From IMG/VR virus record IMGVR_UViG_3300043436_002205: a stretch of DNA of 64,000 nucleotides; one strand, given 5' to 3'. The notes under the pieces are model-generated. The model did not search any database. It was not told the DNA's origin and saw only the letters and a program-made list of their open reading frames with translations. Within the stretch, counting starts at the first letter, position 1, and each line of letters opens with the position of its first letter. Below, in pieces: positions 1,625 through 20,485 of the stretch. A program made the translations under genes and the position numbers. The DNA is from a virus. Lineage: Duplodnaviria; Heunggongvirae; Uroviricota; Caudoviricetes.

Positions 1625-2296
1625 TTAAAGTTGTTTCCAGAACTCATAGTCTTTTTTATAAAAGTTCAGGACGTTTTCTTTGAGCTCTTCAGATAATGAA
1701 AAATCTTTTATCTTATCATCGTAAAAAGCTCTATCGTATATGTCTTTTACGTTTATATTTATATCCAAACCGACATCTTTTGTTAGAAACTCTACGAACT
1801 CGTCGTTGAACCCGTTTTCAAATTTCCAAACGTAAAAGTCTTCATTAAAAAAATCTACTTGCGGTTTGAACCAATTGTTAAACATATTGGTAAGACCTTT
1901 AAAAATAAAGTATTTTCCCTTAGTTCTTAACGAATACGGTTTTTCTTTCATAACATACTTAAAGTATATAGGGTCGTTCATTAGATGAAAATTTTCATAC
2001 CCACCAAAAAACAATTTCATTGACCACTCAGAATTAACTGTAGATAAGAAACGATCTAGAGGATTTCTAAATATGATGATCTTTTTAGAGTTTTTTAATT
2101 CTCCGTGGATATCTTTGAGTTCTTCGTATGTTATATGCATGTACTCACTATCTTTATAAAAGTGAGTATAAAAAATTTCTTTACACTTTTTGTTTTGTAT
2201 GTAAGAATTCTTCTTGAGTAGACTGATAAAGTGTCGCCCACCATTTCTGGGTATATGCACAAAGCATACGCTCTGGTCGTTCTTTTCAAATATCAA
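1625..2296 (-). CDS. Sulfotransferase-family (Sulfotransfer_2-like) protein
   Basis: 5'PSB-like FVHIPRNGG and 3'PB-like FRNPLDRFLS motifs; terminal FYKKDYE. Confidence 0.7.
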   Translation of the reverse strand: MIFEKNDQSVCFVHIPRNGGRHFISLLKKNSYIQNKKCKEIFYTHFYKDSEYMHITYEELKDIHGELKNSKKIIIFRNPLDRFLSTVNSEWSMKLFFGGYENFHLMNDPIYFKYVMKEKPYSLRTKGKYFIFKGLTNMFNNWFKPQVDFFNEDFYVWKFENGFNDEFVEFLTKDVGLDININVKDIYDRAFYDDKIKDFSLSEELKENVLNFYKKDYEFWKQL

Positions 2297-2306
2297 TTCT
2301 ATCTAC

Positions 2307-2906
2307 TCATTCCAAGTTCATTTCTTTTTTGAACTTATTTAAAACTGCGTCGCTTTCGTGTATCCAAGTCACGATTGCTTCGCGTGTTCCAGATTCTACG
2401 ATCCTAGCTTCATGGTAAAACACGGCTGGAAATATTATGAAGCTTCCGATTTCTTTTGAAAGCTTTGCTATTTCGTTATTATTGTTATCAAACACGACTA
2501 ACTCACCACCACCATAATCATTTTCTTCTGATAGATTAATCGAGCACGTGAGAATTCTTTTTATGTTAGTATCATACAAGGTGTCTTTGTGTTTTTTAAA
2601 GAAGTTACCTTTTTCGTATCTTGCATACTGTATCTCAGCAATATTTGTTAAGTCTATGTAAGAGCATATCGAAGAGTACTCGCTTATTATCGCGGATTGA
2701 AGTATGCTAAATGTGTTAGGATACTTATCGGCTTTTGGAAAGAAGATCGTAGAATTGCGAATACTTGTATCTAGTCTACCCTTGCCAGAACTGGAAAGCT
2801 GTGCATTAAAGCGATCTTCTTTATAAATATTTGCGTCCTTTGACAGTTTTCTTACTTCGTTTCGCGTAAGTTTACCGCTTGCAATATATTTAGAAAAGTT
2901 ATCCAT
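2307..2906 (-). CDS. 2OG-Fe(II) oxygenase (PKHD/prolyl-hydroxylase-like)
   Basis: RYEKGNFFKKHKD (HxD), LTCSINLS...YGGGEL, YHEARIV...REAIVTW (H, R). Confidence 0.85.
   Translation of the reverse strand: MDNFSKYIASGKLTRNEVRKLSKDANIYKEDRFNAQLSSSGKGRLDTSIRNSTIFFPKADKYPNTFSILQSAIISEYSSICSYIDLTNIAEIQYARYEKGNFFKKHKDTLYDTNIKRILTCSINLSEENDYGGGELVVFDNNNNEIAKLSKEIGSFIIFPAVFYHEARIVESGTREAIVTWIHESDAVLNKFKKEMNLE
2822..2829 (+). promoter_or_regulatory. Putative late promoter TATAAATA for the inverted glycosyltransferase, lying inside the 2OG gene
   Basis: Exact consensus about 75 nt upstream of ATG 2905 on +. Confidence 0.55.
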
Positions 2907-3600
2907 GAAGATCTCCCTAGGGACTACTTATTACAACAATCCCGAAAACATAGTAAATTTTATTGATCACCATCTGGAACACGTTGACGAATTAGTCATT
3001 GTAGACGATGGATCCTCTGATATTTATCACATATTGAATTATGTTCAACCGTCAGAAAAACTAAAATTGTATCGTGTCAAAAAGGACTATGGGTTTAATT
3101 CTCACGGGTGCAGAAATCTTATAATGAAAGAGTCATCAAACGAGTTTGTGATACTCTTGGATTCTGATCGAAAGTTAGAAGACCCAGCATATTCTATAGA
3201 ACAGATAAAAAGAAAAACACTAAAAGGGAATCGTCTGTATAGATTTGTGGCGCATTCTTTCAACATAGGAAAGAATGTGCACGAGTCTGTTAACGATTAT
3301 TTAATAAGTAAGACTCACTTCTTTAGTGCCGGTGGATACGATGAGGAATGGATAGGTTATAGAAACGGAGATCGTCAATTCTTTGAGCAACTGAAGTTTT
3401 TTGGCGATGAGAAACTTCTACACGACATTAATATATTACTCTTAAGATCTGCATCCTTAAGATTGGACAATAAAGAGATACGTTCTGAAAATGATTTAAC
3501 GAATCCAAGTAAAAAAGACTACGATGTCGTAATGCAAAGAATGAAAAAGCCGGATCCAAATAAAAAGATAATTACATTTGAATGGGAAAGACTTACTTAA
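2905..3600 (+). CDS. GT-A glycosyltransferase (GT2 / GT7-C-like)
   Basis: LVIVDDGS, GCRNL, LLDSD (DxD), GGYDEEWIGY..GD. Confidence 0.8.
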   Translation: MKISLGTTYYNNPENIVNFIDHHLEHVDELVIVDDGSSDIYHILNYVQPSEKLKLYRVKKDYGFNSHGCRNLIMKESSNEFVILLDSDRKLEDPAYSIEQIKRKTLKGNRLYRFVAHSFNIGKNVHESVNDYLISKTHFFSAGGYDEEWIGYRNGDRQFFEQLKFFGDEKLLHDINILLLRSASLRLDNKEIRSENDLTNPSKKDYDVVMQRMKKPDPNKKIITFEWERLT

Positions 3601-4585
3601 AGTCTCCAAGGTCGAACTTTGTCCCTTTCATCTTATTAATGTCTACTAGGTCGTTGTTCTTCCACACAAGTACTTCGTTATCCTCATACAAGAAATCACA
3701 GTCCTTGCAAAAAGAAACCTCGTCGAATCTTTTTTCGGTATGCATCTGTCGCAACCACTTATATCTATCACCATTCCATACTTCTTCGACAGACTTATTC
3801 TCTAACGATCCTAAATCTGCTTCTGCATCTCTTCCAAGCACTTGACAGCACGGTGCTACAGATAACTTGGTACCGTTGCTTCCACCAGCACGTATAGTGA
3901 TATCGGGTGAGAATGGACGCCCACAGGTTCTCTTCTCTCCCTTTCTCTTATATGTTGGATCGTATACTCCCGACCAGTTATGCATCTTCCATATCTCTGC
4001 GTGCGATCCTACTACGTCAATAAAGTTCTTTCTGTATTCAGAGACTTCGTATTCTTCCTGATCGTTATCGAGTATAAGGTGATAGGATGCTACGATGCAA
4101 TTAGAATTCCTTTCCTTGATGTAGTTCTTCATGTCAATTGCGTTTTGCTTAACCGTATCAAAAGCGTATCGATTCATCCACTTTCTATACATCGCTTGAT
4201 TGTAGCCAATGATCGAGAACCTGGCAAGATCTAACCCAGCATCGACACATTCCTTCATGAAGTCGCCTCGAAGGTTATAACCGTTTGTGTATATGAAAGC
4301 TTTCGCTCCGTACTTTTTTACGATAGCAATGTATTCCGGAAGATTACGATTTAGAGTCGGCTCGCCAGATCCTTCAAGGTTCACAACATTAAGACCTGCT
4401 TCTGCACACTCGGCAACTGCTCTCTCAAAATCTTCGAGAGACATCTTCTTGAGCCAGTCCTTACCTCGTCCACCATGCGTACCGTCAGCATTCGTCTGAG
4501 GACACATCTGACAGGTATAGTTGCAGCCCCCGTTGATCTCTATGACGGCTCTGTCTATATTGAGCGGTATTGAATAATCATTCAT
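3593..4585 (-). CDS. Radical SAM protein with SPASM-type C-terminal domain
   Basis: CNYTCQMC (CxxxCxxC), GSGEP, TCGRPF...APCC...LGSL...WNG...CKDC. Confidence 0.9.
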   Translation of the reverse strand: MNDYSIPLNIDRAVIEINGGCNYTCQMCPQTNADGTHGGRGKDWLKKMSLEDFERAVAECAEAGLNVVNLEGSGEPTLNRNLPEYIAIVKKYGAKAFIYTNGYNLRGDFMKECVDAGLDLARFSIIGYNQAMYRKWMNRYAFDTVKQNAIDMKNYIKERNSNCIVASYHLILDNDQEEYEVSEYRKNFIDVVGSHAEIWKMHNWSGVYDPTYKRKGEKRTCGRPFSPDITIRAGGSNGTKLSVAPCCQVLGRDAEADLGSLENKSVEEVWNGDRYKWLRQMHTEKRFDEVSFCKDCDFLYEDNEVLVWKNNDLVDINKMKGTKFDLGDFK

Positions 4586-4595
4586 TCTATCAACC

Positions 4596-5249
4596 TTATG
4601 GTATCATTACAAAATTATGTTTCTTATATTCGTCTTTGTCGTTTGAATAGTGATCTATCGTTCCGCCATACTTCATTGACATTACCTGGTCTGAAGCTGG
4701 AATAAAGAGATCATGTTTAACATTGACTAACTCTTTCATTCTATTATTTTGAAAGGCAAACTTTTCTATATGAGAGTACGGTCCATTACTTATCTCTACT
4801 CCATACATATGCTCTATTAGATCCTTTGCGAACCAGGGCTGAATGATATAGCTACCCATTGCAGCGCGATCGTAGAATGTAATTCCGTAAAGATTGTTAC
4901 ACCAAAGTTTTGAAGGATCTTGTAATATGCAGTCGTGTTCGAGTATTAGAATAGGTTTGTTCGTAAAGACTGATTCTTGCCAGAGACGAAAATGACTGTA
5001 GAAGCATGCACGTTCTGTTTCGGTTATCTCAACCTTCAATCCTCTTACTACATACTTAGGAGAAGTAGAGTATTTTGCGAACTTTAGGTCTTTCTGTCTG
5101 TGTAACGTCTTTGGTGTTATCGCGTTAAAGCGATTGACTGTGATCCCTACACTTTCCCAACTCGGCTTGCAATAATCGTGATAGTACTCAGACCTTTCGT
5201 CGTTCTCTATCACTATCATAAAACATGATATGTTTTTAAATATATCCAT
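4596..5249 (-). CDS. Glycosyltransferase family 25-like
   Basis: RFNAITP, ERACFYSHFRLW, ILILEHD. Confidence 0.75.
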   Translation of the reverse strand: MDIFKNISCFMIVIENDERSEYYHDYCKPSWESVGITVNRFNAITPKTLHRQKDLKFAKYSTSPKYVVRGLKVEITETERACFYSHFRLWQESVFTNKPILILEHDCILQDPSKLWCNNLYGITFYDRAAMGSYIIQPWFAKDLIEHMYGVEISNGPYSHIEKFAFQNNRMKELVNVKHDLFIPASDQVMSMKYGGTIDHYSNDKDEYKKHNFVMIP

Positions 5250-5955
5250 TTGATTTAAGATCTTTAAGTGGTCCTTGAGATTCTATAGCATGCTTATCGT
5301 AATCGCTATCTGTAATGTACTCCACCATATTAACCCACATGTCTCTATTGTGTATAACAAAGGCGATCGACAATCTGGCTTTCTTAGTTGAAGCTGCATG
5401 CCAGTACACTCTATTCGGTTCCTTGACTTCTGAAGGATAGTATCCGCACTTAACGTTCCAACCTGGCTTGTCATACATATACACTACTTCGTCTTTTTCT
5501 TTATCGTAGTACTTAAAGTGCCCATCGCCGTCCTGGCTATATGAGAACAATACATTATATCCTGGAGCGTTACCGTTATGATGCCACCCGATGTAACCGT
5601 CGTCAGGATACAACATACATAGCGCGTTTTGTGCAGACCCAACGGTGTTCTGAAGACGCATTAACTTTTTTGCCACTAATTCGTGAAAGAAACTACTTTT
5701 ATCAATGTCAGTACTTATGGTTCCTATACCTAACGCAGCTCTAGGATACGCAAAATCTTTTAATGGGTACTTTAATGCTTTTCTAAAATATGCATCGTCT
5801 ACAGAATGTAAATCTGTAATTAGATTATCTTTTTTTTCTTTACGTCTAGCTTCTTCAGATAGTCTTTTTATATTTTCTTCTTTAAAGACATCTTCAGTTA
5901 TACCAGATAGAATTTTCGTCAGTCTTTGACTTTTTAGGCAAACTTCTTTCATCAT
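5236..5955 (-). CDS. Cupin/2OG-Fe(II) oxygenase-like hypothetical protein
   Basis: YIGWHHN...YWHAAST...RLSIAF spacing resembles the double-stranded beta-helix metal site. Confidence 0.5.
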   Translation of the reverse strand: MMKEVCLKSQRLTKILSGITEDVFKEENIKRLSEEARRKEKKDNLITDLHSVDDAYFRKALKYPLKDFAYPRAALGIGTISTDIDKSSFFHELVAKKLMRLQNTVGSAQNALCMLYPDDGYIGWHHNGNAPGYNVLFSYSQDGDGHFKYYDKEKDEVVYMYDKPGWNVKCGYYPSEVKEPNRVYWHAASTKKARLSIAFVIHNRDMWVNMVEYITDSDYDKHAIESQGPLKDLKSNGYI

Positions 5956-6721
5956 TCAATCCCTTCTGTAGTCTTTCATAAAAATGTGTCATATCCTTAG
6001 ATCTCATGGATACCTTATCTATCTGATATACGATCGGACGTTTTCCATCGTATAGATCCTTTCCATCGTGTATCGTAGCGTTGTACACCTTTGGGCCTAT
6101 CTTTATATTTAAGTTGTTAAATCGTTCAAACTCTTTCCATCTGCCGGAAGTTAGTCTCCAAAGAGTAAACATATCAAATATTTTCCAATCGGGCCAAGCG
6201 AAGTCGTATGTCCACGGTTCGGTTCTTTGTTTTAGATATTCATCGAACCACGTCTGCATAAAATCTATCGTTAGGTCTGTCTTTCTGTAACCGCAGACCG
6301 CACCATGATACTTTACTGGTATCTTTTGTTCCTTATCAAAGAAAGACCACTTATAGTTACCGGTTGTATACCAGTAACTCTCTGTGAAGAACATGTCGCA
6401 GTCTTTAATCTCGTCGAATACGTTCTTTATCTTACTGCTTACGATCTGCGAGTCTACGTCGTTGTAGAATGTATTCTCGTATGGAGTCCTTGCCATACAC
6501 CACATCTTTGCTCGCTCGTGAACCGGAATGCCGGTGATCACGTTATTAAAAATCTCTCTTGCTCTATCGTCAACCCAAGCTTCGTGAGTAAAGAGAGTTA
6601 TGTGAGCGTTTCTATGCATTGTTCGAAGAGACTCTCCGGACAGCATGGCGAGTTCATAGAATAGTTTTTCTTTTGAAGCAACGTATATGAAACCATTTTC
6701 ACTTTTTTCTACATCATTCAT
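5894..6721 (-). CDS. Nucleotide-diphospho-sugar transferase (GT-A, GT8-like)
   Basis: GFIYVAS...AKMWCMARTPYENTFYNDVDS (DxD) motif. Confidence 0.6.
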   Translation of the reverse strand: MNDVEKSENGFIYVASKEKLFYELAMLSGESLRTMHRNAHITLFTHEAWVDDRAREIFNNVITGIPVHERAKMWCMARTPYENTFYNDVDSQIVSSKIKNVFDEIKDCDMFFTESYWYTTGNYKWSFFDKEQKIPVKYHGAVCGYRKTDLTIDFMQTWFDEYLKQRTEPWTYDFAWPDWKIFDMFTLWRLTSGRWKEFERFNNLNIKIGPKVYNATIHDGKDLYDGKRPIVYQIDKVSMRSKDMTHFYERLQKGLNDERSLPKKSKTDENSIWYN

Positions 6722-6735
6722 AAATCAATCTCATT

Positions 6736-7227
6736 TCAAGTTGTTTCGGCTTCTTCCTCGAGATCATCTAGGTAGTCTAGATAATCGTTGTAGTCCATAC
6801 CCTGATTTTCCATAAACTTTCTCGTGATATCTGTAACAATAAAGTCTAATACAGCTTTCGTTGGCGCTCTTCGTATTGCAGATTTTATATCTGTTCCTGC
6901 GTCACGAATAAATGGAAGTTCTAGGACTTTTGTTTTTTCGTTGAAAAGAGTCTTAAGCTCTATGACTTTCTCTTGAGTCCTTCTCTTTTCGTCGGCGTGC
7001 TTTTTATGATTTCTCTGTTCCGCTTCGATGCGGTTTCTTTTCTGACGCATTTCTTCGATATCAAATTCATCAACGATTCGATCCCAATACTTATTCACGC
7101 CTTTTCTTTTATTATTCGGAACAGTAAGTTCAGCAACGCTTTCGATTCCATCTTCACGTATTATCTTAAATCTTACTCTCGTCTTTTCCAAGTCTACATA
7201 TTCAGGGTTTAGTATTTTTTCAACCAT
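6736..7227 (-). CDS. Hypothetical protein, charged/coiled-coil
   Basis: 163-aa ORF packed in the operon; no family recognised. Confidence 0.5.
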   Translation of the reverse strand: MVEKILNPEYVDLEKTRVRFKIIREDGIESVAELTVPNNKRKGVNKYWDRIVDEFDIEEMRQKRNRIEAEQRNHKKHADEKRRTQEKVIELKTLFNEKTKVLELPFIRDAGTDIKSAIRRAPTKAVLDFIVTDITRKFMENQGMDYNDYLDYLDDLEEEAETT

Positions 7228-7230
7228 AAT

Positions 7231-9855
7231 TTAAAGAATCCTTCTCCAAAGAGTTTTCGTAGAGATTACTGAGCTATTATTATTTATTATCGATCCTGCA
7301 TATGTACTCTGATAGTCTACAGCTCCAGCATAATCGTTTGGTACTGTAGAGTCATAATTTACCGTATCCGGGACGGCTGCAATGTATGTTGTAGTATATG
7401 CAGGACCATCATAAGAGCTAGTATAGCTGGATGGTAAAGGACTAGAGAAGACCCCACCTGTGACTCCTATGTAATCGGTAATATATGACAGGGTCCCAAC
7501 ATAAAACACTGGAGCAAATCCTACAAATTGTCCTAGATATGTAGTTTCACTTATATACGACACCGGTCCAATACCAACGTAGTCTCCTAGATAAGCAACT
7601 GTGTTGTCATAGTTTGCCGCCGTCACTCCTAAGTAATCTATATCGTATGTTAACACTCCAACGTAGCTTGCGGGAGTCACACCGGCGTATTCACTCTCGT
7701 ATGTAACAGATAATATATAACTGCCAGCATCTGGAGTTAATCCAGCGTAGTTGCCAAGATAGGCTATAACCGTATCATAAACCGCTCCATCTGGGTTTGT
7801 TCCGAGATAATCTGCAGCAATGAGCGCAGTATATAATACTTCCGGTATACCAATATATCCGGCTCCGTCTGGAGTAGTTCCTGGACCGATATATGTAGGG
7901 CCGTCAAGAGGGCCCAAGTAACTAACATCAGGCCCGGCACCGAGATAGTTAACTGGTGCACCAGATCCAAGATAATTTATTGCGTTGTCTGACTCGTAGT
8001 TTATGGCATCCGGAGTCGCAGGACCTACGTAGTTAATTGATGGTATGGAAGTATAATCTACGAAGTTTAGTTTTTGCGACCCTTGATAATCTTGGTTTCC
8101 TGGGCCTAAGTAGTTGGTATCCGCGCCAGGGCCGAGGTAGCTTGTAGCTGCACCAGGGCCGAGGTAGTTTGTAGCATTCGCCGGGCCAGGGCCAACGTAT
8201 GATAATGTTTTGGTTCTCACGTACGTGATGCCCGGCCCTGGCCCGAGATAGTTTATAGAATTCGCTGCGCCTGGCCCAACATAATTTATAGCATTCGCCG
8301 TGCCCGGGCCAAGATAGTTTGTGACGTTAGCAACTAACGAAGTGTAGTTCGCAGCAGGACCTCCTGGGCCAAGGTAGTTAACAGTTGTAATGTCTCCTAG
8401 ATAGAAAGGTTCTGCGCTAGGACCTAAGTATAGAGGAAATAACGTATAGTTTGTAAAGTTTGCCGGGCCAGGACCAAGATAGTTTACGTTTGGGACTCCG
8501 GATTGAGATGCATAAGGAGCACCGTCCGTATCCGTAGATACATATAGAACTCCATCCAAAGGCCCAATATATGTGACTGGCGCAGAGGGTCCTAGATATG
8601 AAGCCGGAGTCGTTCCTGCATAGTTAATAGAGTCCGCCAACGGACCAAGATAGTTAACTGTCACGAATCGAGTACTATCATAGGTAACCTCTGCAGGTCC
8701 AACGTATGTGACTGGACCAATAAACCCAGTCACATACGTGATAGGAGTGATACCAACGTACGTAGCTGGTCCTACATAATCTGCTACGTAAGTAGCCGGT
8801 GTAACGCCGACATAAGAAATAGGACCGATGTAATCGCCGACATAGTTCGTTGGCGCAACTCCATCGTATACAATCCCGCCAAGATAGTCTCCATCGTATG
8901 TTGCAAAACCCGGACCTAGATAGTTTATACCACTAGGCCCTTCAAAGGTGGTAGTGTATGCCGCCGGTGCAACACCGTCATAACCAACAATAACAGAAGA
9001 AACGTAATCAGTGTCGTATGTTCCTATGTAATCTGTGTCATACGGTACGTCCGAACCGCCAAGATAGCTTATAGGAATAATACCGGTATAATTCACATCA
9101 GAAGTATATATCGGGCCTACATAATCTTGCGCAGATATCGTAGGTCTTGTGTCAAGGATAGTACCCATTTCAGCCCAAGTCCCTGGCGTTGGCGCAGCTA
9201 GCTGAAATGCATAGTAACCTATCTGTGTTGTTATAATTCTTTCTCTTACTTTTTCGACTAGCTGTTCTATTTCGGCCTGAGTCATGATCTGAATGGTTCC
9301 GCCAGATACATGTTTAAGAGGACTGTGTGTAAGAGTGGTAGTACCCGATATCTTTTTAAATAACGTGGTTACAGTAGTATTTGCTGTGTCTTGAACGTTG
9401 TTAATGCTTCCGATGGATACCCAAGTACCTCCAGCCGGCGCGGCGCTTGTTAACACGTAACCACCTGGGCCATCTCCAATAACCATATATTGTATAATAG
9501 CATCGGCAAGATCGTTGAGCTCTGTATTGTTCGCGATCTTAATATCAGTTCCGTTCCAATGTAATGGTGGATTCGTGACAGATCCGTAGTTACTCGTTCT
9601 ATCCTGATAAAGAGTGTATGTTGTAGAAAGAAGTGTAACGTCTCCAGTTCCAATAGCTCCCTGATATCGTGTATCAGTGAAATCACCTATTGCTACATAA
9701 GCGGTGTTTGCACCTTGTGCGTTGTATATGTTACCGGGCCCGTCAACAGAAGCAAACTTTTCAAGAACAACTTCAGCGATCGCTTCAAACTCAGAGTCGT
9801 TTATGATCTGTAATATGCCACTGCCCTTATAGGTAAGGACATTTGGTCTTGCCAT
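7231..9855 (-). CDS. Large Tyr-x-Gly repeat structural protein (fibre-like)
   Basis: 874 aa; triplicated N-terminal domain followed by about 600 aa of Y[LVIA]G(P) repeats. Confidence 0.7.
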   Translation of the reverse strand: MARPNVLTYKGSGILQIINDSEFEAIAEVVLEKFASVDGPGNIYNAQGANTAYVAIGDFTDTRYQGAIGTGDVTLLSTTYTLYQDRTSNYGSVTNPPLHWNGTDIKIANNTELNDLADAIIQYMVIGDGPGGYVLTSAAPAGGTWVSIGSINNVQDTANTTVTTLFKKISGTTTLTHSPLKHVSGGTIQIMTQAEIEQLVEKVRERIITTQIGYYAFQLAAPTPGTWAEMGTILDTRPTISAQDYVGPIYTSDVNYTGIIPISYLGGSDVPYDTDYIGTYDTDYVSSVIVGYDGVAPAAYTTTFEGPSGINYLGPGFATYDGDYLGGIVYDGVAPTNYVGDYIGPISYVGVTPATYVADYVGPATYVGITPITYVTGFIGPVTYVGPAEVTYDSTRFVTVNYLGPLADSINYAGTTPASYLGPSAPVTYIGPLDGVLYVSTDTDGAPYASQSGVPNVNYLGPGPANFTNYTLFPLYLGPSAEPFYLGDITTVNYLGPGGPAANYTSLVANVTNYLGPGTANAINYVGPGAANSINYLGPGPGITYVRTKTLSYVGPGPANATNYLGPGAATSYLGPGADTNYLGPGNQDYQGSQKLNFVDYTSIPSINYVGPATPDAINYESDNAINYLGSGAPVNYLGAGPDVSYLGPLDGPTYIGPGTTPDGAGYIGIPEVLYTALIAADYLGTNPDGAVYDTVIAYLGNYAGLTPDAGSYILSVTYESEYAGVTPASYVGVLTYDIDYLGVTAANYDNTVAYLGDYVGIGPVSYISETTYLGQFVGFAPVFYVGTLSYITDYIGVTGGVFSSPLPSSYTSSYDGPAYTTTYIAAVPDTVNYDSTVPNDYAGAVDYQSTYAGSIINNNSSVISTKTLWRRIL
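7305..9135 (-). repeat. Imperfect coding repeat (N/S/T)-Y-[LVIA]-G-P-G
   Basis: Dozens of copies in the translation; DNA shows recurring ccaagatag/gggccaagg-type units. Confidence 0.85.
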
Positions 9856-9856
9856 A

Positions 9857-10024
9857 TTATACAGAACCCCAGACTACAGTTCCTGCCGCATTAAGGATCT
9901 TTAGAGTTCTATTTGAACTGTCCTGCAAATAAGTAATCACGGCAGTGTTTGAGGTTGCCGTGAGTATGTTTGTTATATTTCTGCTATCGTCAATAACGGT
10001 TGTTCCAGATATCTTAACAGCCAT
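9857..10024 (-). CDS. 55-aa structural protein MAVKISGTTVIDDSRNI... (missed by the ORF track)
   Basis: Hand translation; AGGAG SD; N-terminal motif common in T4-like virion proteins; GATAAATA late-like motif upstream. Confidence 0.75.
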   Translation of the reverse strand: MAVKISGTTVIDDSRNITNILTATSNTAVITYLQDSSNRTLKILNAAGTVVWGSV

Positions 10025-10069
10025 CTTCGCTCTCCTTTAGAACTATTAGCTGTATCTATTTATCACAAC

Positions 10070-11095
10070 TTATGTCTTTAGCCATCTTTCGTTCTCTAGA
10101 GTCCACTTTACTACTTCTGCAATTCTTTCGCGGACTGAAGTGGCTGGTTCCCATCCAAGACTCTTCATCTTGTTTCCGTCTAGGGCATAGCGAAGATCGT
10201 GGCCTGGGCGACTCGAGTGAAAGTCGACAAACTCGTAGTTGAGTTCCTTACCTTGCGCGTCTGCGATGATCCTTGCAAGTTCGTAGTTATCGATCTCTTC
10301 TGCGCCGACGATGTTAAACTTGGGGCACTTAGCTCCACCCCATTCTTCCTTTAGATCAAAATTCCCATTTAGTAAGAATAAAACTGCATCTGCTACATCT
10401 TCTGCGTGGATGTAGTGACGTGATCCCGGGATCGTCTTTGTTCTATCGCTATGGATTGTAATCTTCTCGCCATCACGAGCTTTCTTGATGCACATTGGTA
10501 TGTACTTCTCCGGGTGTTGTCTCTGACCAAAGACGTTCATAGTATGAGTGATATAGATCGGCAAGCCGTAGGTATTCTCATACGCAACAGCAAGTTCTTC
10601 GCCGCCTGCTTTTGATGCGCTATAAGGATTCGTAGAGTTATAGCGATCGTTTTCACCATACTTAATTCCATCCGGCGCAGGACCAAAGACTTCATCGGTA
10701 CTGAAGTAGATGAACCTCTTAAGATTGCTCTTTTGCGCTCTTGCAAATTCGAGAATGTTACACGTTCCGACAACATTATCAAGAACGAACTCCATCGGAT
10801 AGTCGATAGAACGATCAACATGTGACCCTGCTGCAAGGTGAGCGATGTAGTCTACGGATCCTACTTCTGAACGAACGAGTGGGTTCATGTCGGCCTTCAG
10901 GTCGTGAAATACCACGCTTACTCTCTTACGAGTTTCGGCGTCGAACTCCTGTAGTGAGTCGTGGAGGCGATTCAAGTTTCCACTGTAGTCCAATCTATCT
11001 AGAGTAACTACCTCCCAATCCGTCTCTTTGAGCACTTTACATACGAGGTGGTGGGCAATAAAACCGGCTCCGCCAGTGATTAATATTCTTTTCAT
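10070..11095 (-). CDS. rmlB: dTDP-glucose 4,6-dehydratase (true start MKRILITGGAG at 11095)
   Basis: GGAGFIA, HLAAGSHVDRSI, STDEVFG, YSASK, RPGHDLRYALD. Confidence 0.9.
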   Translation of the reverse strand: MKRILITGGAGFIAHHLVCKVLKETDWEVVTLDRLDYSGNLNRLHDSLQEFDAETRKRVSVVFHDLKADMNPLVRSEVGSVDYIAHLAAGSHVDRSIDYPMEFVLDNVVGTCNILEFARAQKSNLKRFIYFSTDEVFGPAPDGIKYGENDRYNSTNPYSASKAGGEELAVAYENTYGLPIYITHTMNVFGQRQHPEKYIPMCIKKARDGEKITIHSDRTKTIPGSRHYIHAEDVADAVLFLLNGNFDLKEEWGGAKCPKFNIVGAEEIDNYELARIIADAQGKELNYEFVDFHSSRPGHDLRYALDGNKMKSLGWEPATSVRERIAEVVKWTLENERWLKT

Positions 11096-11118
11096 AATGT
11101 ATTCCTTTTCATTGTATG

Positions 11119-11145
11119 AAGAAGCGGGCAATGCCCGCTTCTTTT
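11119..11145. terminator. Hairpin terminator between the tctC-like gene and rmlB
   Basis: Perfect 11-bp stem AAGAAGCGGGC-AAT-GCCCGCTTCTT. Confidence 0.65.
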
Positions 11146-11153
11146 CTATATGA

Positions 11154-11981
11154 TTACTGCACCTGACTTTGGTAGGCAGACACTTCTTTCTGTATAGCTT
11201 CGAGCTGTGCTTCTCTATCGAGTAATGAAAGCTCACGACTATATGTGTTAAACATTTCTTTCCAAGAATCTGAAGAGGTAGAATCGTTTAAAACCTGCTT
11301 CATCTCTTCTAGATCAACATTTACTCCAAGGAATGCGAACTTCATACCGGCTGTAGAGAAGACGTCATCACTGTAATTAACTAGCGGTGTAATTTCAGTG
11401 CTGTTTGGATCTGTAGTCAGCACGCAGCTCATAATATCGCTTGGCTTGGTCGTATAGACAAAGTCTATCTCGTCTATTTCAAAAGCTGCCATATATTCAT
11501 TCGCGCTCTTATACGGAATGATCGTAGCATTACTCTGTACTGCTTTTACATTATTTTCTAAAGATAACTTGTATAGAAAATCAATAGCATAACCTATCTT
11601 TGCGTTTCCGTTTATAAAGTATTCGAGATCTTTACCGGAATCTTTCTTTGTGCAGATATAGTTATACGAAGAGATGTGAACAGTGATAAAATTATCTTTT
11701 GTGAGTGTTTCCTTACATTCTTCACTTGCTGAAAAAGGTTCTGCAATTGGCTGCCATATTACTATGGTTGGGTTAGTCTCAGTTTTAAGAATGCTTGCTG
11801 CTGTGGCACAGGACTCTACTTTTTCTACACTTCCAAAAAGAGAAGGGTTTGACTCGTGTAGATAGTTTCCTAGTTTAAAGGCAGCTCCGGTTGGATTGTA
11901 TGGATTTATGATGCGAACTAATTCGTTTGCGTAGAGCGGTGTAGAAATCATCATAAAGAGCGCTGTGATGTATTTAATCAT
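11154..11981 (-). CDS. Secreted type-2 periplasmic binding protein, TctC/Bug-like
   Basis: Signal peptide MIKYITALFMMISTPLYA; RIINPYNPTG and IIPYKSANEYMAAFEIDEIDF resemble Bug motifs; adjacent to the tctA-like gene. Confidence 0.6.
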   Translation of the reverse strand: MIKYITALFMMISTPLYANELVRIINPYNPTGAAFKLGNYLHESNPSLFGSVEKVESCATAASILKTETNPTIVIWQPIAEPFSASEECKETLTKDNFITVHISSYNYICTKKDSGKDLEYFINGNAKIGYAIDFLYKLSLENNVKAVQSNATIIPYKSANEYMAAFEIDEIDFVYTTKPSDIMSCVLTTDPNSTEITPLVNYSDDVFSTAGMKFAFLGVNVDLEEMKQVLNDSTSSDSWKEMFNTYSRELSLLDREAQLEAIQKEVSAYQSQVQ

Positions 11982-11989
11982 ATTTTACC

Positions 11990-13321
11990 TCATAAGTATA
12001 GAGCGTTGAATGTCATTATGCTGTAGTACAGCATGTCGTGAAGCAGAAATGCAAAGACTATTGGTGTTCTATCGTAACTCTTGAGCAGATAACCAATTGG
12101 TATCAAAGCTATAAGAAGTACTACATAGTACACGGACTGACCATACATAGATCCAGTAATATACGCGACGACAAAGAGCATCGCAATAATAAAGATATAT
12201 ATGTATCTAAAGTCTATCCTTGAAAAAACTCTTATCCAATTTACATACTTTCCTGCTATGAATACGCCGATAATCGCGCTAAGCATATAGACAACCATCA
12301 TATAAGGAAGCATGTGATAGAAGAAGTTTGTTGTTATATGTATTCCTTTACTCTCGACTATACTATATATAAAAGATTGTGTACTAGTAATTGGAAGACC
12401 TACGAGAAATAAAGGAATTATTTGTGAAAAAACACCTGCGTTGTTTGCAGTCTCGGCCGCAACAAGACAGTCTATATCACCAACCTGATACTTGTTTTGT
12501 TTCTTTTTTATTCTTTTTTCGAGTAGATACGCAAGTGTTGTTCCAAGATGATACGTAACTCCTGGTATAAACCCGGATACATAACCTATCAAGAATCCAC
12601 GAACTACAACTCCCCAATGTTGTAACATATTCTTAAACGACACAACATAACCTGAAAGTTGCAACTTATTCATCACTATCTTTCTTGAGCCTACTTCAAG
12701 TTGATCTAGGATATACGGTATTACGTATATTCCTAAGACGACACTGATTGTAGGAAGCCCGCTTAACAGATAATTGTTACCAAATGTAAGAAATGCGGTG
12801 TTTGTATTTTTATCCATCCCGACGTGCGCTAAGATAAAACCCAAGATTATAAATGCGCAACTGATCCAGTACTTATTCTTACTCACTACTATAAATGCTA
12901 TTAGACACAGAAAAGTAAGCAGCATTTTTATGCGCGTATCAAACATAGAGAACATATAGTAACTATACTGAATAAAGATGTACGACACCATGATAGAGAG
13001 AAGAGATCCTATGAAGCTTCCTATCGCTGCATACATTATTGCCCTATCACCATCTCCACGACGAAACAATTCGTGACCTTCGATTAACGAAGGAATGGAT
13101 GTCATAGAACCAGGGACAGCAAAGATAGTTGCTGACACAGATCCAAAGTATTGGCTCAGGCTTGCAACTACTACATATACTGCTAACGCGTTTGCTGGGT
13201 CAATTCCCATTAGAAACGGATACATTAGAGACAGCGTCACAAACACGGACACTCCTGGTATCAATCCGGACAAGACGCCAAAGAAGGTCGCAACAAGAAA
13301 AGAAACAACCATTTCTATCAT
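11990..13321 (-). CDS. tctA: Tripartite tricarboxylate transporter TctA-like membrane protein
   Basis: About 12 hydrophobic segments; GVLSGLIPG, YFGSVSATIFAVPG, G.ISGFIPG, VAAETANNA motifs. Confidence 0.85.
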   Translation of the reverse strand: MIEMVVSFLVATFFGVLSGLIPGVSVFVTLSLMYPFLMGIDPANALAVYVVVASLSQYFGSVSATIFAVPGSMTSIPSLIEGHELFRRGDGDRAIMYAAIGSFIGSLLSIMVSYIFIQYSYYMFSMFDTRIKMLLTFLCLIAFIVVSKNKYWISCAFIILGFILAHVGMDKNTNTAFLTFGNNYLLSGLPTISVVLGIYVIPYILDQLEVGSRKIVMNKLQLSGYVVSFKNMLQHWGVVVRGFLIGYVSGFIPGVTYHLGTTLAYLLEKRIKKKQNKYQVGDIDCLVAAETANNAGVFSQIIPLFLVGLPITSTQSFIYSIVESKGIHITTNFFYHMLPYMMVVYMLSAIIGVFIAGKYVNWIRVFSRIDFRYIYIFIIAMLFVVAYITGSMYGQSVYYVVLLIALIPIGYLLKSYDRTPIVFAFLLHDMLYYSIMTFNALYL

Positions 13322-13322
13322 T

Positions 13323-14495
13323 TCAACTATCTCTTAACTCTAAAGTGGATTTTCTTATGTATATGGACCTAGAAGGAATCGAATTTAATGTTTTATTTTC
13401 TTCATCTATGTATCTTGCGTCAACTCTTCTAGATATTTCTTCTTCAAAGAAATGCTGAGTTTCTCGAATAATTCCAATCTTTTCTCTTTTTAAATGAAGA
13501 TGTTTTAACCATCCGGAATAATCTGGACTCGCTCTCCAATAATTTCCATTCAATACATGACTCAAGGCTTTATATCCCATTGATTCATTTATAAGTGTAT
13601 AGTAAGAACTAGAAAAGTGTTGAACTTCACTCACAAGTTTTTCTGCTTCGCTCTTACTAATATTTCCACGTGCCTTGACAATACTTTCAATCGCTGATAT
13701 CTTAAGCCACGCGAGCTTTATCTGTATTTCTGGGACGTCGTCAGTAGAGAAAAAGAAGATTGTATCGTAGTCATTAGATGATGGAGTATCATATTGCCAC
13801 CACATTCCAGAATTAGTAGCCCAAAACCAATCTCCGTTTACCAAAGTTACACGAGGTTTTTCTAATCCCCATATCATACAAGATCGCGGTTTAGTCTTAT
13901 TCACTCTCTTGTGTCTTGAGTGATATTGGCCTATAGATTCCGGTAACTTAACCATAGTACGATAATCACCTACGAAATTCTCAAGAGCAAGTCTCCATTC
14001 TGCCGGGTCGTTTGGTGCAAGATAATTCGGTTTGTCTAAACCTTCTACCGTGTAGTTGAGTTGCTTTAACTTCTCGCTGTATTTACTCATAAGAGTATCA
14101 CGAATCTGTCCAAAGAGTTTTATTTTTGGATTAAAATCTTCGAAACCAAACCCGGCTCTATGCCAAAGTTTAACATTTCTTATACCTTCATCTATAAATG
14201 CATCGAGTATTGTATGACTATCAGTTCCTCCACTGTAGTGAATCGTAATGTCATCATACTTTTCCGCAAGGATTCTTGCGTGCTTCCTGAAATAGTCTTT
14301 AGATTCAAGAAGAGGTTCTACTCTCCATGCCTGCGGATTACGATACACGTCATAGTCAAGAACAAACTCTATCCTAGAGTCTCTTCTCTTACTTGCTTCT
14401 GAAAATGCTTCTACGTTATTATAAAACTTAGATCCGTTCGCGAGAAAGTAGAAGTTTGGTTTTGAAGAAGGAATATCGCGAAATAAATTTATCAC
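13323..14495 (-). CDS. PP-loop (adenine nucleotide alpha-hydrolase-like) protein of unknown function
   Basis: ITIHYSGGTDSHTIL (SGGxDS); later IWGLEKP. Confidence 0.65.
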   Translation of the reverse strand: MINLFRDIPSSKPNFYFLANGSKFYNNVEAFSEASKRRDSRIEFVLDYDVYRNPQAWRVEPLLESKDYFRKHARILAEKYDDITIHYSGGTDSHTILDAFIDEGIRNVKLWHRAGFGFEDFNPKIKLFGQIRDTLMSKYSEKLKQLNYTVEGLDKPNYLAPNDPAEWRLALENFVGDYRTMVKLPESIGQYHSRHKRVNKTKPRSCMIWGLEKPRVTLVNGDWFWATNSGMWWQYDTPSSNDYDTIFFFSTDDVPEIQIKLAWLKISAIESIVKARGNISKSEAEKLVSEVQHFSSSYYTLINESMGYKALSHVLNGNYWRASPDYSGWLKHLHLKREKIGIIRETQHFFEEEISRRVDARYIDEENKTLNSIPSRSIYIRKSTLELRDS

Positions 14496-20477: not shown

Positions 20478-20485
20478 TATTTATA
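20478..20485 (-). promoter_or_regulatory. T4-type late promoter TATAAATA
   Basis: Exact consensus 25 nt upstream of ATG 20453. Confidence 0.7.

Follow-up and report, generated by a model that had tools for sequence, protein, structure and literature searches.

What do a solute-binding protein, a membrane permease and an ATP-dependent enzyme do together in the genome of a tailed phage? The question is raised by three adjacent minus-strand genes at positions 11154–14495 of a 64,000-nucleotide stretch of DNA, called the window here, which spans bases 81,630–145,629 (reverse strand) of the 217,966-bp IMG/VR virus record IMGVR_UViG_3300043436_002205, rated complete by CheckV. In the order of transcription, the genes encode a PP-loop enzyme, P0003 (390 aa; 13323–14495), a short TctA-family permease, P0002 (443 aa; 11990–13321), and a predicted TctC/Bug-family periplasmic solute-binding protein, P0001 (275 aa; 11154–11981). 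Their packing is as tight as an initial annotation of the DNA had described, with intergenic gaps of 1 nt (13322) and 8 nt (11982–11989) and with purine-rich ribosome-binding sequences that overlap the stops of the preceding genes.

Judged by sequence comparison and phylogeny, this cassette is a phage-specific variant of tripartite tricarboxylate transporter (TTT) importers that lacks TctB, combined with a new, virus-only branch of PP-loop enzymes. With somewhat better than even confidence, we favour the view that the trio is a self-contained, phage-specific unit that takes up an acid and then ligates it through an amide bond. We infer this mechanism, uptake followed by ATP-dependent amide formation, from the anatomy of the genes and from comparative genomics. 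The binding protein would capture a small organic acid in the periplasm of the infected Gram-negative host and pass it to the permease, which would bring it into the cell by ion-coupled symport in the manner of bacterial TTT systems. The PP-loop enzyme would then spend ATP to adenylate a carboxyl group, either that of the imported solute or that of an acceptor to which the solute is joined, and would form an amide or a lactam. Ligation would thereby trap or convert the solute. In this genome the cassette appears to close a tail-fibre operon and is surrounded by enzymes that tailor sugars and proteins, so that its product may feed tailoring of the virion or envelope rather than bulk nutrition.

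The three proteins of the cassette

TTT systems (TC 2.A.80) are exemplified by Salmonella TctCBA and Bordetella BctCBA, and their Bug-family receptors include BugD, BugE, Bug27, TphC and MatC. P0002 clearly belongs to the TctA family, matching Pfam PF01970 at 1.5e-69 (235.1 bits against a cut-off of 28.9; residues 7–417 of 443). The initial annotation was right about this family, but its estimate of roughly 12 transmembrane (TM) helices did not hold: in a simple and crude hydropathy scan, P0002 has 11 hydrophobic segments, short of the twelve of bacterial TctA, against 13 peaks in the bacterial reference. P0002 groups with TctAs of approximately 420–470 aa, to which it is 30–82% identical, as opposed to 25–27% for ordinary bacterial TctAs (about 503 aa). 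In an alignment of 106 sequences, these short TctAs are truncated relative to bacterial TctA by about 13 residues at the N-terminus and by about 45 at the C-terminus, where the last TM helix is missing, and the C-terminal loss is common to the whole viral TctA clade. P0002 retains both GxxxGxxPG motifs, one in the first helix and one in the second-half repeat, as well as the AETANN motif, and residues G15, G19, P22, G23, G246, G250, P253, E290, N293 and N294 are invariant or nearly so among 33 short TctAs. Conservation of these glycine/proline and AETANN motifs argues for a working transporter. The third TTT component, TctB, is missing, as the initial annotation had stated: the 1- and 8-nt gaps leave no space for it in the operon, no PF07331 match at E ≤ 1 occurs across the 218-kb genome, and no membrane open reading frame (ORF) was found among the cassette neighbours in related loci.

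P0001 on its own has no Pfam match (even at E ≤ 5), no PHROG or NCBIfam match and no useful PDB sequence match, and no PF03401 match was found in the genome. It has nine close homologues, and transitive ORF clustering across related viral loci finds its family in 44 loci. The AlphaFold2 (AF2) model, for which a 39-sequence family alignment was the input, has a pLDDT of 92 and the two-lobed Bug fold. The best PDB matches to this model in Foldseek are all TTT receptors (E 2e-10 to 6e-8, TM 0.56–0.67), namely Bug27 (1.9e-10) followed by BugE, the terephthalate-binding TBP, TphC, MatC, BugD and a Polaromonas TctC. Furthermore, the profile of the 39-member viral family matches TTT receptors in the PDB (25hk 4e-8, BugE 1.1e-5, TphC 2.1e-5, with the range extending to 8e-3) and also bacterial ORFs, with E down to 5.6e-16, of which the three that were checked are all Pfam TctC. 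One viral family member (L143:7104–7991) passes Pfam TctC itself with 67.6 bits. By predicted fold and family profile, P0001 is therefore a TctC/Bug-family binding protein. TctC proteins usually carry the N-terminal ligand loop PFxxGGxxD; P0001 reads NPYNPTGAAFK there, and the PYK...D motif is kept (Y157, D173).

The initial annotation had also assigned P0001 a signal peptide, and a predicted Sec signal can be read at residues 1–18 (MIKYITALFMMISTPLYA; 11928–11981, minus strand). An N-terminal hydrophobic segment is present in all 38 binding-protein family members, 37 of which reach the hydropathy cut-off of 2.0, with P0001 scoring 1.9. By the same test, just one of 27 PP-loop proteins is positive and none of 16 proteins of the ATP-grasp-like family described below. 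Signal-like N-termini in the binding proteins and not in the ligases give a topology that agrees with the proposed model, and P0003 is predicted to be cytoplasmic.

P0003 carries the SGGxDS signature that the initial annotation had recognised, as SGGTDS at residues 88–93 (14217–14234, minus strand) within HYSGGTDS (residues 86–93), and its AF2 model (pLDDT 92) has a PP-loop fold. No Pfam, PHROG or NCBIfam match was obtained for it, and a PDB sequence search with P0003 alone gave nothing useful. An exhaustive HMMER search extends its family to 499 representative clusters at 50% identity; in an alignment of 70 members, G90, D92 and K213 are invariant and S88, G89 and S93 are invariant or nearly so. 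None of the 70 matches PF00733 (Asn_synthase) at E ≤ 0.01 or convincingly reaches any Pfam family, and the family profile gives weak PP-loop matches alone in the PDB. By language model, its closest clusters are virus-only, 28 of the 30 being unnamed clusters from Uroviricota, and in BFVD it is matched best by proteins from uncultured Caudovirales that are themselves uncharacterised.

In structural comparison with VIA-align, the eleven best matches of P0003 are all of the asparagine-synthetase class (Z 7.3–9.3, 204–290 residues aligned), and matches of the class, TsnB9 included, span Z 6.9–9.3: human ASNS scores Z 9.3 over 288–290 residues, E. coli AsnB 8.9, beta-lactam synthetase 8.0–8.4 and carbapenam synthetase 7.4. 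Other PP-loop enzymes (LarE, NAD synthetase, GMP synthetase, TilS and PAPS reductase) reach Z 5–6.6 over some 150–170 residues. Enzymes of the asparagine/beta-lactam synthetase class first form a carboxylate-AMP intermediate and then an amide or lactam. P0003 shares the SGGxDS motif with the class B superfamily (AsnB/ASNS, beta-lactam synthetase, carbapenam synthetase, TsnB9), whose synthetase domain is the best, if middling, structural match to its predicted architecture; by implication, it may also adenylate a carboxylate that a nitrogen nucleophile then attacks. It differs in lacking a glutaminase domain, as only about 60–75 residues precede the PP-loop strand and the N-terminal nucleophile (Ntn) glutaminase-type domain of about 200 residues is absent; in lacking a Pfam Asn_synthase match, with sequence alignment confined to the PP-loop; in having family invariants of its own such as G210-x-E-K213-P; and in belonging to an essentially virus-only family. 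On its modelled structure, P0003 is thus probably a PP-loop adenylating enzyme that acts like the asparagine/beta-lactam synthetase class, although by sequence criteria it is not a member of that class.

Linkage and ligase replacement in viral loci

Single-protein queries against IMG/VR gave no matches, and alignment-based scans were needed. With the short-TctA alignment as query, 49 viral loci were recovered from IMG/VR, and the linkage counts use the 39 non-identical TctA genes in them. The binding-protein gene lies within three genes of TctA in 37 of the 39, and an ATP-dependent ligase gene lies within two genes in 36, belonging to the PP-loop family in 19 cases and to another family of about 380 aa in 17. 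The exceptions are one contig end, two loci with the PP-loop gene a few kilobases away and one locus without a detected binding protein. The genes occur in at least four orders, enzyme-TctA-TctC (as in the window), TctA-TctC-enzyme, enzyme-TctC-TctA and TctC-TctA-enzyme, and their flanks are heterogeneous, comprising PhoH, SufBD, heme oxygenase, portal, terminase, ribonucleotide reductase, tail fibres, sugar enzymes and sulfotransferases, which indicates that the trio is a mobile unit. One 66-kb viral contig (L046) carries two complete, diverged cassettes in tandem (3244–11058), each with the order enzyme-TctA-binding protein, separated by an HxD...H oxygenase-like gene. In L017 and L019, three to four PP-loop paralogues surround one TctA and adjoin ribonucleotide reductase; these two contigs are nearly identical, though the bin of L019 is labelled GVMAG (giant-virus metagenome-assembled genome). 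The complete trio turns up in dozens of uncultured phages from aquatic habitats, both marine and freshwater, and was not found in any cultured phage or cellular genome searched. The initial annotation had proposed a phage TctB-less transporter and PP-loop enzyme acting as a module, and had taken a lack of co-occurrence or of a phage clade as the outcome that would speak against it; the three families are found together, variously ordered, in many viral contigs, and the viral TctAs form a clade of their own, so that this core reading is supported by the comparisons.

Approached from the enzyme side, TctA and the binding protein are found beside the PP-loop gene in 11 of 18 loci. In L143 (5980–7991) and L141 (2638–4731), the PP-loop gene adjoins a TctC-type binding protein and the flank examined contains no TctA, and in L141 a Rieske/ring-hydroxylating oxygenase-like gene comes next. 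In L137 (1484–2302) and L138 (3927–4808), collagen-repeat proteins with a Hint (intein-like self-cleaving) end stand directly after the PP-loop gene.

The second ligase family is confined to a single TctA sub-clade (17 rows, support 100), in which a protein of about 380 aa replaces the PP-loop gene (L016, L018, L020, L022–L026, L028, L030, L032–L036 and L038–L042; for example L033:1621–2787) and the binding-protein gene is inverted, so that it is convergent. All named clusters among the nearest neighbours of this protein are ATP-grasp (scores 0.95–0.97), it matches ATP-grasp_3 weakly (E 0.037) in the C-terminal metal-binding region, and it carries ...PFIIKPxxGSG... and ...DxNPRxG... patterns, which we take to be typical of the ATP-grasp fold. 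These features are suggestive of an ATP-grasp enzyme. The TctA partners of the replacement form one clade nested among PP-loop-linked TctAs, and we read this as one event in which a different ATP-dependent ligase took over the slot. ATP-grasp enzymes also join carboxylates to amines at the expense of ATP and make up a second class of such ligases. The exchange of one ligase class for another is our best indirect argument that the job of the third gene is carboxylate ligation, and carboxylate import with ATP-dependent activation, as the initial annotation had suggested, is consistent with both this swap and the asparagine-synthetase-like fold of P0003. A second ATP-grasp-looking family, f54 (for example L024:5640–6707), lies a few genes upstream in the same sub-clade.

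Small soluble proteins with an invariant HxD...H pattern (families A6 and A7) often adjoin the cassette. Their resemblance to 2-oxoglutarate oxygenases is weak ('beta-hydroxylase' 0.025, AtsK 1.9), and Asp_Arg_Hydrox matches were obtained for one PP-loop neighbour and two flank clusters. The initial annotation had named 2-oxoglutarate, supplied to nearby oxygenases, as a possible cargo; although such oxygenase-like genes do often flank the cassette elsewhere, this role has no direct support and was rejected, as no evidence favours 2-oxoglutarate over other ligands.

Alternative readings

Several observations count against uptake followed by ligation. The asparagine-synthetase likeness of P0003, at Z 9.3, is middling by VIA-align's own calibration, and when its family was compared with E. 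coli AsnB in hhalign, the alignment covered just 13 residues of the PP-loop. The replacement family has no significant Pfam match and its PDB profile search gave nothing, and its hhalign comparison with RimK is not significant (E 0.33), although the expected motif region was aligned. With its GGxxD loop altered (PTGAAF), P0001 may bind something other than a classical carboxylate. The sequence directly upstream of the trio showed no promoter, the nearest T4-late motif being 6 kb upstream. In a mirror-tree comparison, the distance matrices of the trio's proteins gave high Pearson correlations (0.82–0.88) but very low rank correlations (0.13–0.28), and we make no claim of deep co-inheritance or co-evolution from this result. 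Finally, the PP-loop family occurs without TctA in six of the 18 enzyme-side loci (L137, L138, L142, L144, L145 and L147), and the enzyme is thus not strictly dependent on the importer. Two of these TctA-less loci adjoin collagen-Hint proteins, one adjoins a Gly-rich protein and L145 has three PP-loop copies, all of which would suit two separate functions sharing one island, with TctC and TctA serving plain nutrient uptake and the PP-loop enzyme independently modifying a phage macromolecule such as the collagen-like fibre, a virion glycan or DNA. The same reading draws on the position of the PP-loop gene in the window, which starts at a GTG 12 nt past the stop of a 990-aa collagen/S74 tail-fibre gene, on surroundings that hold glycosyltransferases, a radical SAM enzyme, a sulfotransferase-like gene and an epimerase, and on the paralogue expansion of the enzyme (three to four copies in L017/L019, three in L145), which resembles that of tailoring enzymes. 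We nevertheless consider it unlikely, because the ligase stays within two genes of TctA in 36 of 39 cases even though the genes are shuffled and their flanks (PhoH, SufBD, portal, terminase, ribonucleotide reductase) have little in common, because the double cassette of L046 doubles the ligase too, and because the ligase slot was refilled by another ligase class and not vacated. A different possibility, which we hold to be improbable, is that the PP-loop enzyme makes no amides and carries out some other PP-loop reaction with the imported solute: LarE-like sulfur transfer, adenylylation of sulfate or nucleotides (CysD- or PAPS-reductase-like), or amidation of nicotinic acid mononucleotide or nicotinic acid adenine dinucleotide in NAD salvage after uptake of nicotinate or quinolinate. 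LarE, CysD, APS/PAPS reductases and NAD and NMN synthetases all match P0003 at Z 5–6.6, and sulfotransferase-like genes recur in the flanks; these matches stand below those of the asparagine-synthetase class, which fills the top 11 places over 204–288 residues against about 150–170 for the others. The top fold match of P0001, Bug27, is described in a passage of PMC11452294 as binding quinolinate and nicotinate, but its lead is within noise (1.9e-10 against 3.9e-10 to 4e-9 for other Bug proteins), and the ATP-grasp-like swap suits carboxylate-amine ligation better than sulfur transfer.

The membrane pair might instead have nothing to do with uptake and form an envelope device for superinfection exclusion, receptor masking or anti-defence. 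It adjoins tail-fibre and host-recognition genes, the permease is shortened and TctB is lost, and archaeal solo TctA-like proteins are needed for DNA uptake and not for citrate transport (PMC10133366). Since the TctA transport motifs are invariant across a deeply diverged viral clade, and since a decoy would need neither a binding protein (kept in 37 of 39) nor a cytoplasmic ligase (kept in 36 of 39), we regard such a device, which the initial annotation had raised for superinfection or anti-defence and which found no support, as very unlikely. A recently captured fragment of a bacterial TTT operon is more improbable still, to the point that we rejected it on the trees and on a scan of 185,579 species genomes. 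The initial annotation had found the segment richer in AT than its flanks, and this is modestly so: the GC content of the trio is 0.374 against 0.415 for the window, at the 4th percentile of equal-sized windows. The sharp contrast arises mainly because both flanks are GC-rich (0.46 and 0.50), and the third-position GC of the trio (0.30–0.37) is ordinary, like that of several other genes of the same phage. In both a FastTree tree of 106 rows and an IQ-TREE LG+C20 tree of 43 rows, a single branch (support 100) sets all the viral TctAs and the short metagenomic ones deeply apart from the sampled bacterial TctAs, which were retrieved by similarity and so leave room for a hidden cellular sister group. 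A scan for the short-clade pattern in one genome for each of 185,579 prokaryote species yielded just TctAs of the ordinary kind, about 500 aa long and no more than 31% identical, which adjoin Pfam-TctC genes; no PP-loop or ATP-grasp-like neighbour was found at 80 cellular TctA loci, and the nearest clusters of the PP-loop family are, as noted, virus-only. Megablast of the region against 50,697 GenBank phage records found no match. A tblastn search with the PP-loop protein found none, and one with TctA found six records only, at 23–25% identity, which are bacterial-type sequences or contaminants. We take the depth of the viral clade to rule out a recent capture, and we argue from these sequences that the cassette has probably been resident in viruses for a long time.

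Genomic setting, related systems and significance

The baseplate wedge and hub proteins encoded in the 218-kb genome are of T4 type, as is its DNA polymerase, and we treat the virus as a T4-like myovirus of a presumed Gram-negative aquatic host. A cyanophage host was considered and rejected, as psbA was not found in the genome and the polymerase is just 45% identical to those of cyanomyoviruses. Sigma-70-like sites are not prominent (seven seen against 12.9 expected). The nearest T4-late motif TATAAATA on the strand of the trio lies at 20478–20485, upstream of the fibre genes, and the trio may be the last genes of a fibre operon that is expressed late. In the whole window, TATAAATA occurs 11 times against 5.0 expected, a count reached in none of 100 shuffles, and nine of the 11 lie on the minus strand, where most genes are encoded. 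Downstream of the trio, the terminator proposed in the initial annotation corresponds to a GC-rich hairpin read in the sequence at 11121–11141 (minus strand; GAAGCGGGC-att-GCCCGCTTC, 9-bp stem, 3-nt loop), which lies 13 nt past the binding-protein stop; its T-tail is weak, hence it was missed by a consensus terminator scan, and it likely marks the end of the transcription unit. The NAD-dependent epimerase/dehydratase gene that follows was called as an ORF at 10070–11236 with a GTG start at 11236, which would overlap the binding-protein gene by 83 nt. Its true start is almost certainly the ATG at 11093 (MKRILITGGAGFIA), just past the hairpin, and the overlap was therefore rejected.

Beyond the epimerase, an 874-aa ORF (7231–9855) with no Pfam or PHROG match separates it from a block of glycosyltransferases. 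The tailoring block at 1625–5249 holds a sulfotransferase-like gene, a 2-oxoglutarate-Fe(II) oxygenase, a GT2, a radical SAM/SPASM enzyme and a GT25, the GT2 being the sole plus-strand gene there. Radical SAM/SPASM, nitroreductase-like, methyltransferase, DegT aminotransferase and short-chain dehydrogenase/reductase genes recur near the cassette in other phages.

Compared with bacterial TTT systems, the phage cassette has a Pfam TctA permease with the signature motifs, encoded beside a binding protein that is predicted to be periplasmic and has the same fold and profile homology. It differs in that the phage genome lacks TctB, the permease is about 60 residues shorter and without the last TM helix, and the binding protein is too diverged for Pfam and has an altered GGxxD loop. 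Furthermore, the phage version resides in a lytic T4-like phage and is accompanied in 36 of 39 cases by a ligase that is cytoplasmic and ATP-dependent, whereas the bacterial loci examined have none. To our knowledge, the phage auxiliary uptake genes described so far are single binding proteins that borrow a host transporter. Cyanophage PstS, for instance, is a lone binding protein that plugs into the host ABC transporter; it is likewise a phage-encoded, marine component of host solute uptake, but here the phage supplies binding protein, permease and enzyme. Viral tctA itself has been seen before, as 'tctA (protein domain hit only)' of 'precise metabolic role unknown' on SUP05 viral contigs in 2014, with no binding protein, ligase or cassette described (PMC4164917). 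The searchable literature on viral tctA holds nothing beyond this passing mention and its repetition in a review (PMC6359870). In archaea, solo 11-helix TctA-like proteins without TctB or TctC are essential for natural transformation in two methanogens (PMC10133366). These archaeal proteins (for example Methanococcus MMJJ_13030) resemble the viral ones in having about 11 TM helices and no TctB; in contrast, they lack a TctC partner and are linked to DNA uptake, whereas the viral TctAs keep a TctC-type binding protein.

We put forward, tentatively and with less than even confidence, the wider idea that phages of aquatic habitats evolved and have long kept a minimal, TctB-independent, binding-protein-dependent secondary importer tied to virus-only amide-forming enzymes, for which one lineage substituted an ATP-grasp ligase. 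Infected cells would then turn a specific environmental acid into a phage-specific product, either a decoration of fibre or glycan or a metabolite that the host cannot make. The phage cassette brings permease, binding protein and downstream enzyme together as one mobile unit that is widespread in uncultured marine and freshwater phages. If the ligand were found, it would reveal what infected cells scavenge, which matters for how nutrients and carbon move through aquatic systems; the finding would also provide a natural minimal TTT transporter without TctB, in a family whose mechanism is poorly understood, and a function for a large virus-only PP-loop family. If the proposal is true, the cassette would represent a complete virus-encoded pathway of uptake plus conversion, a new class of auxiliary gene module.

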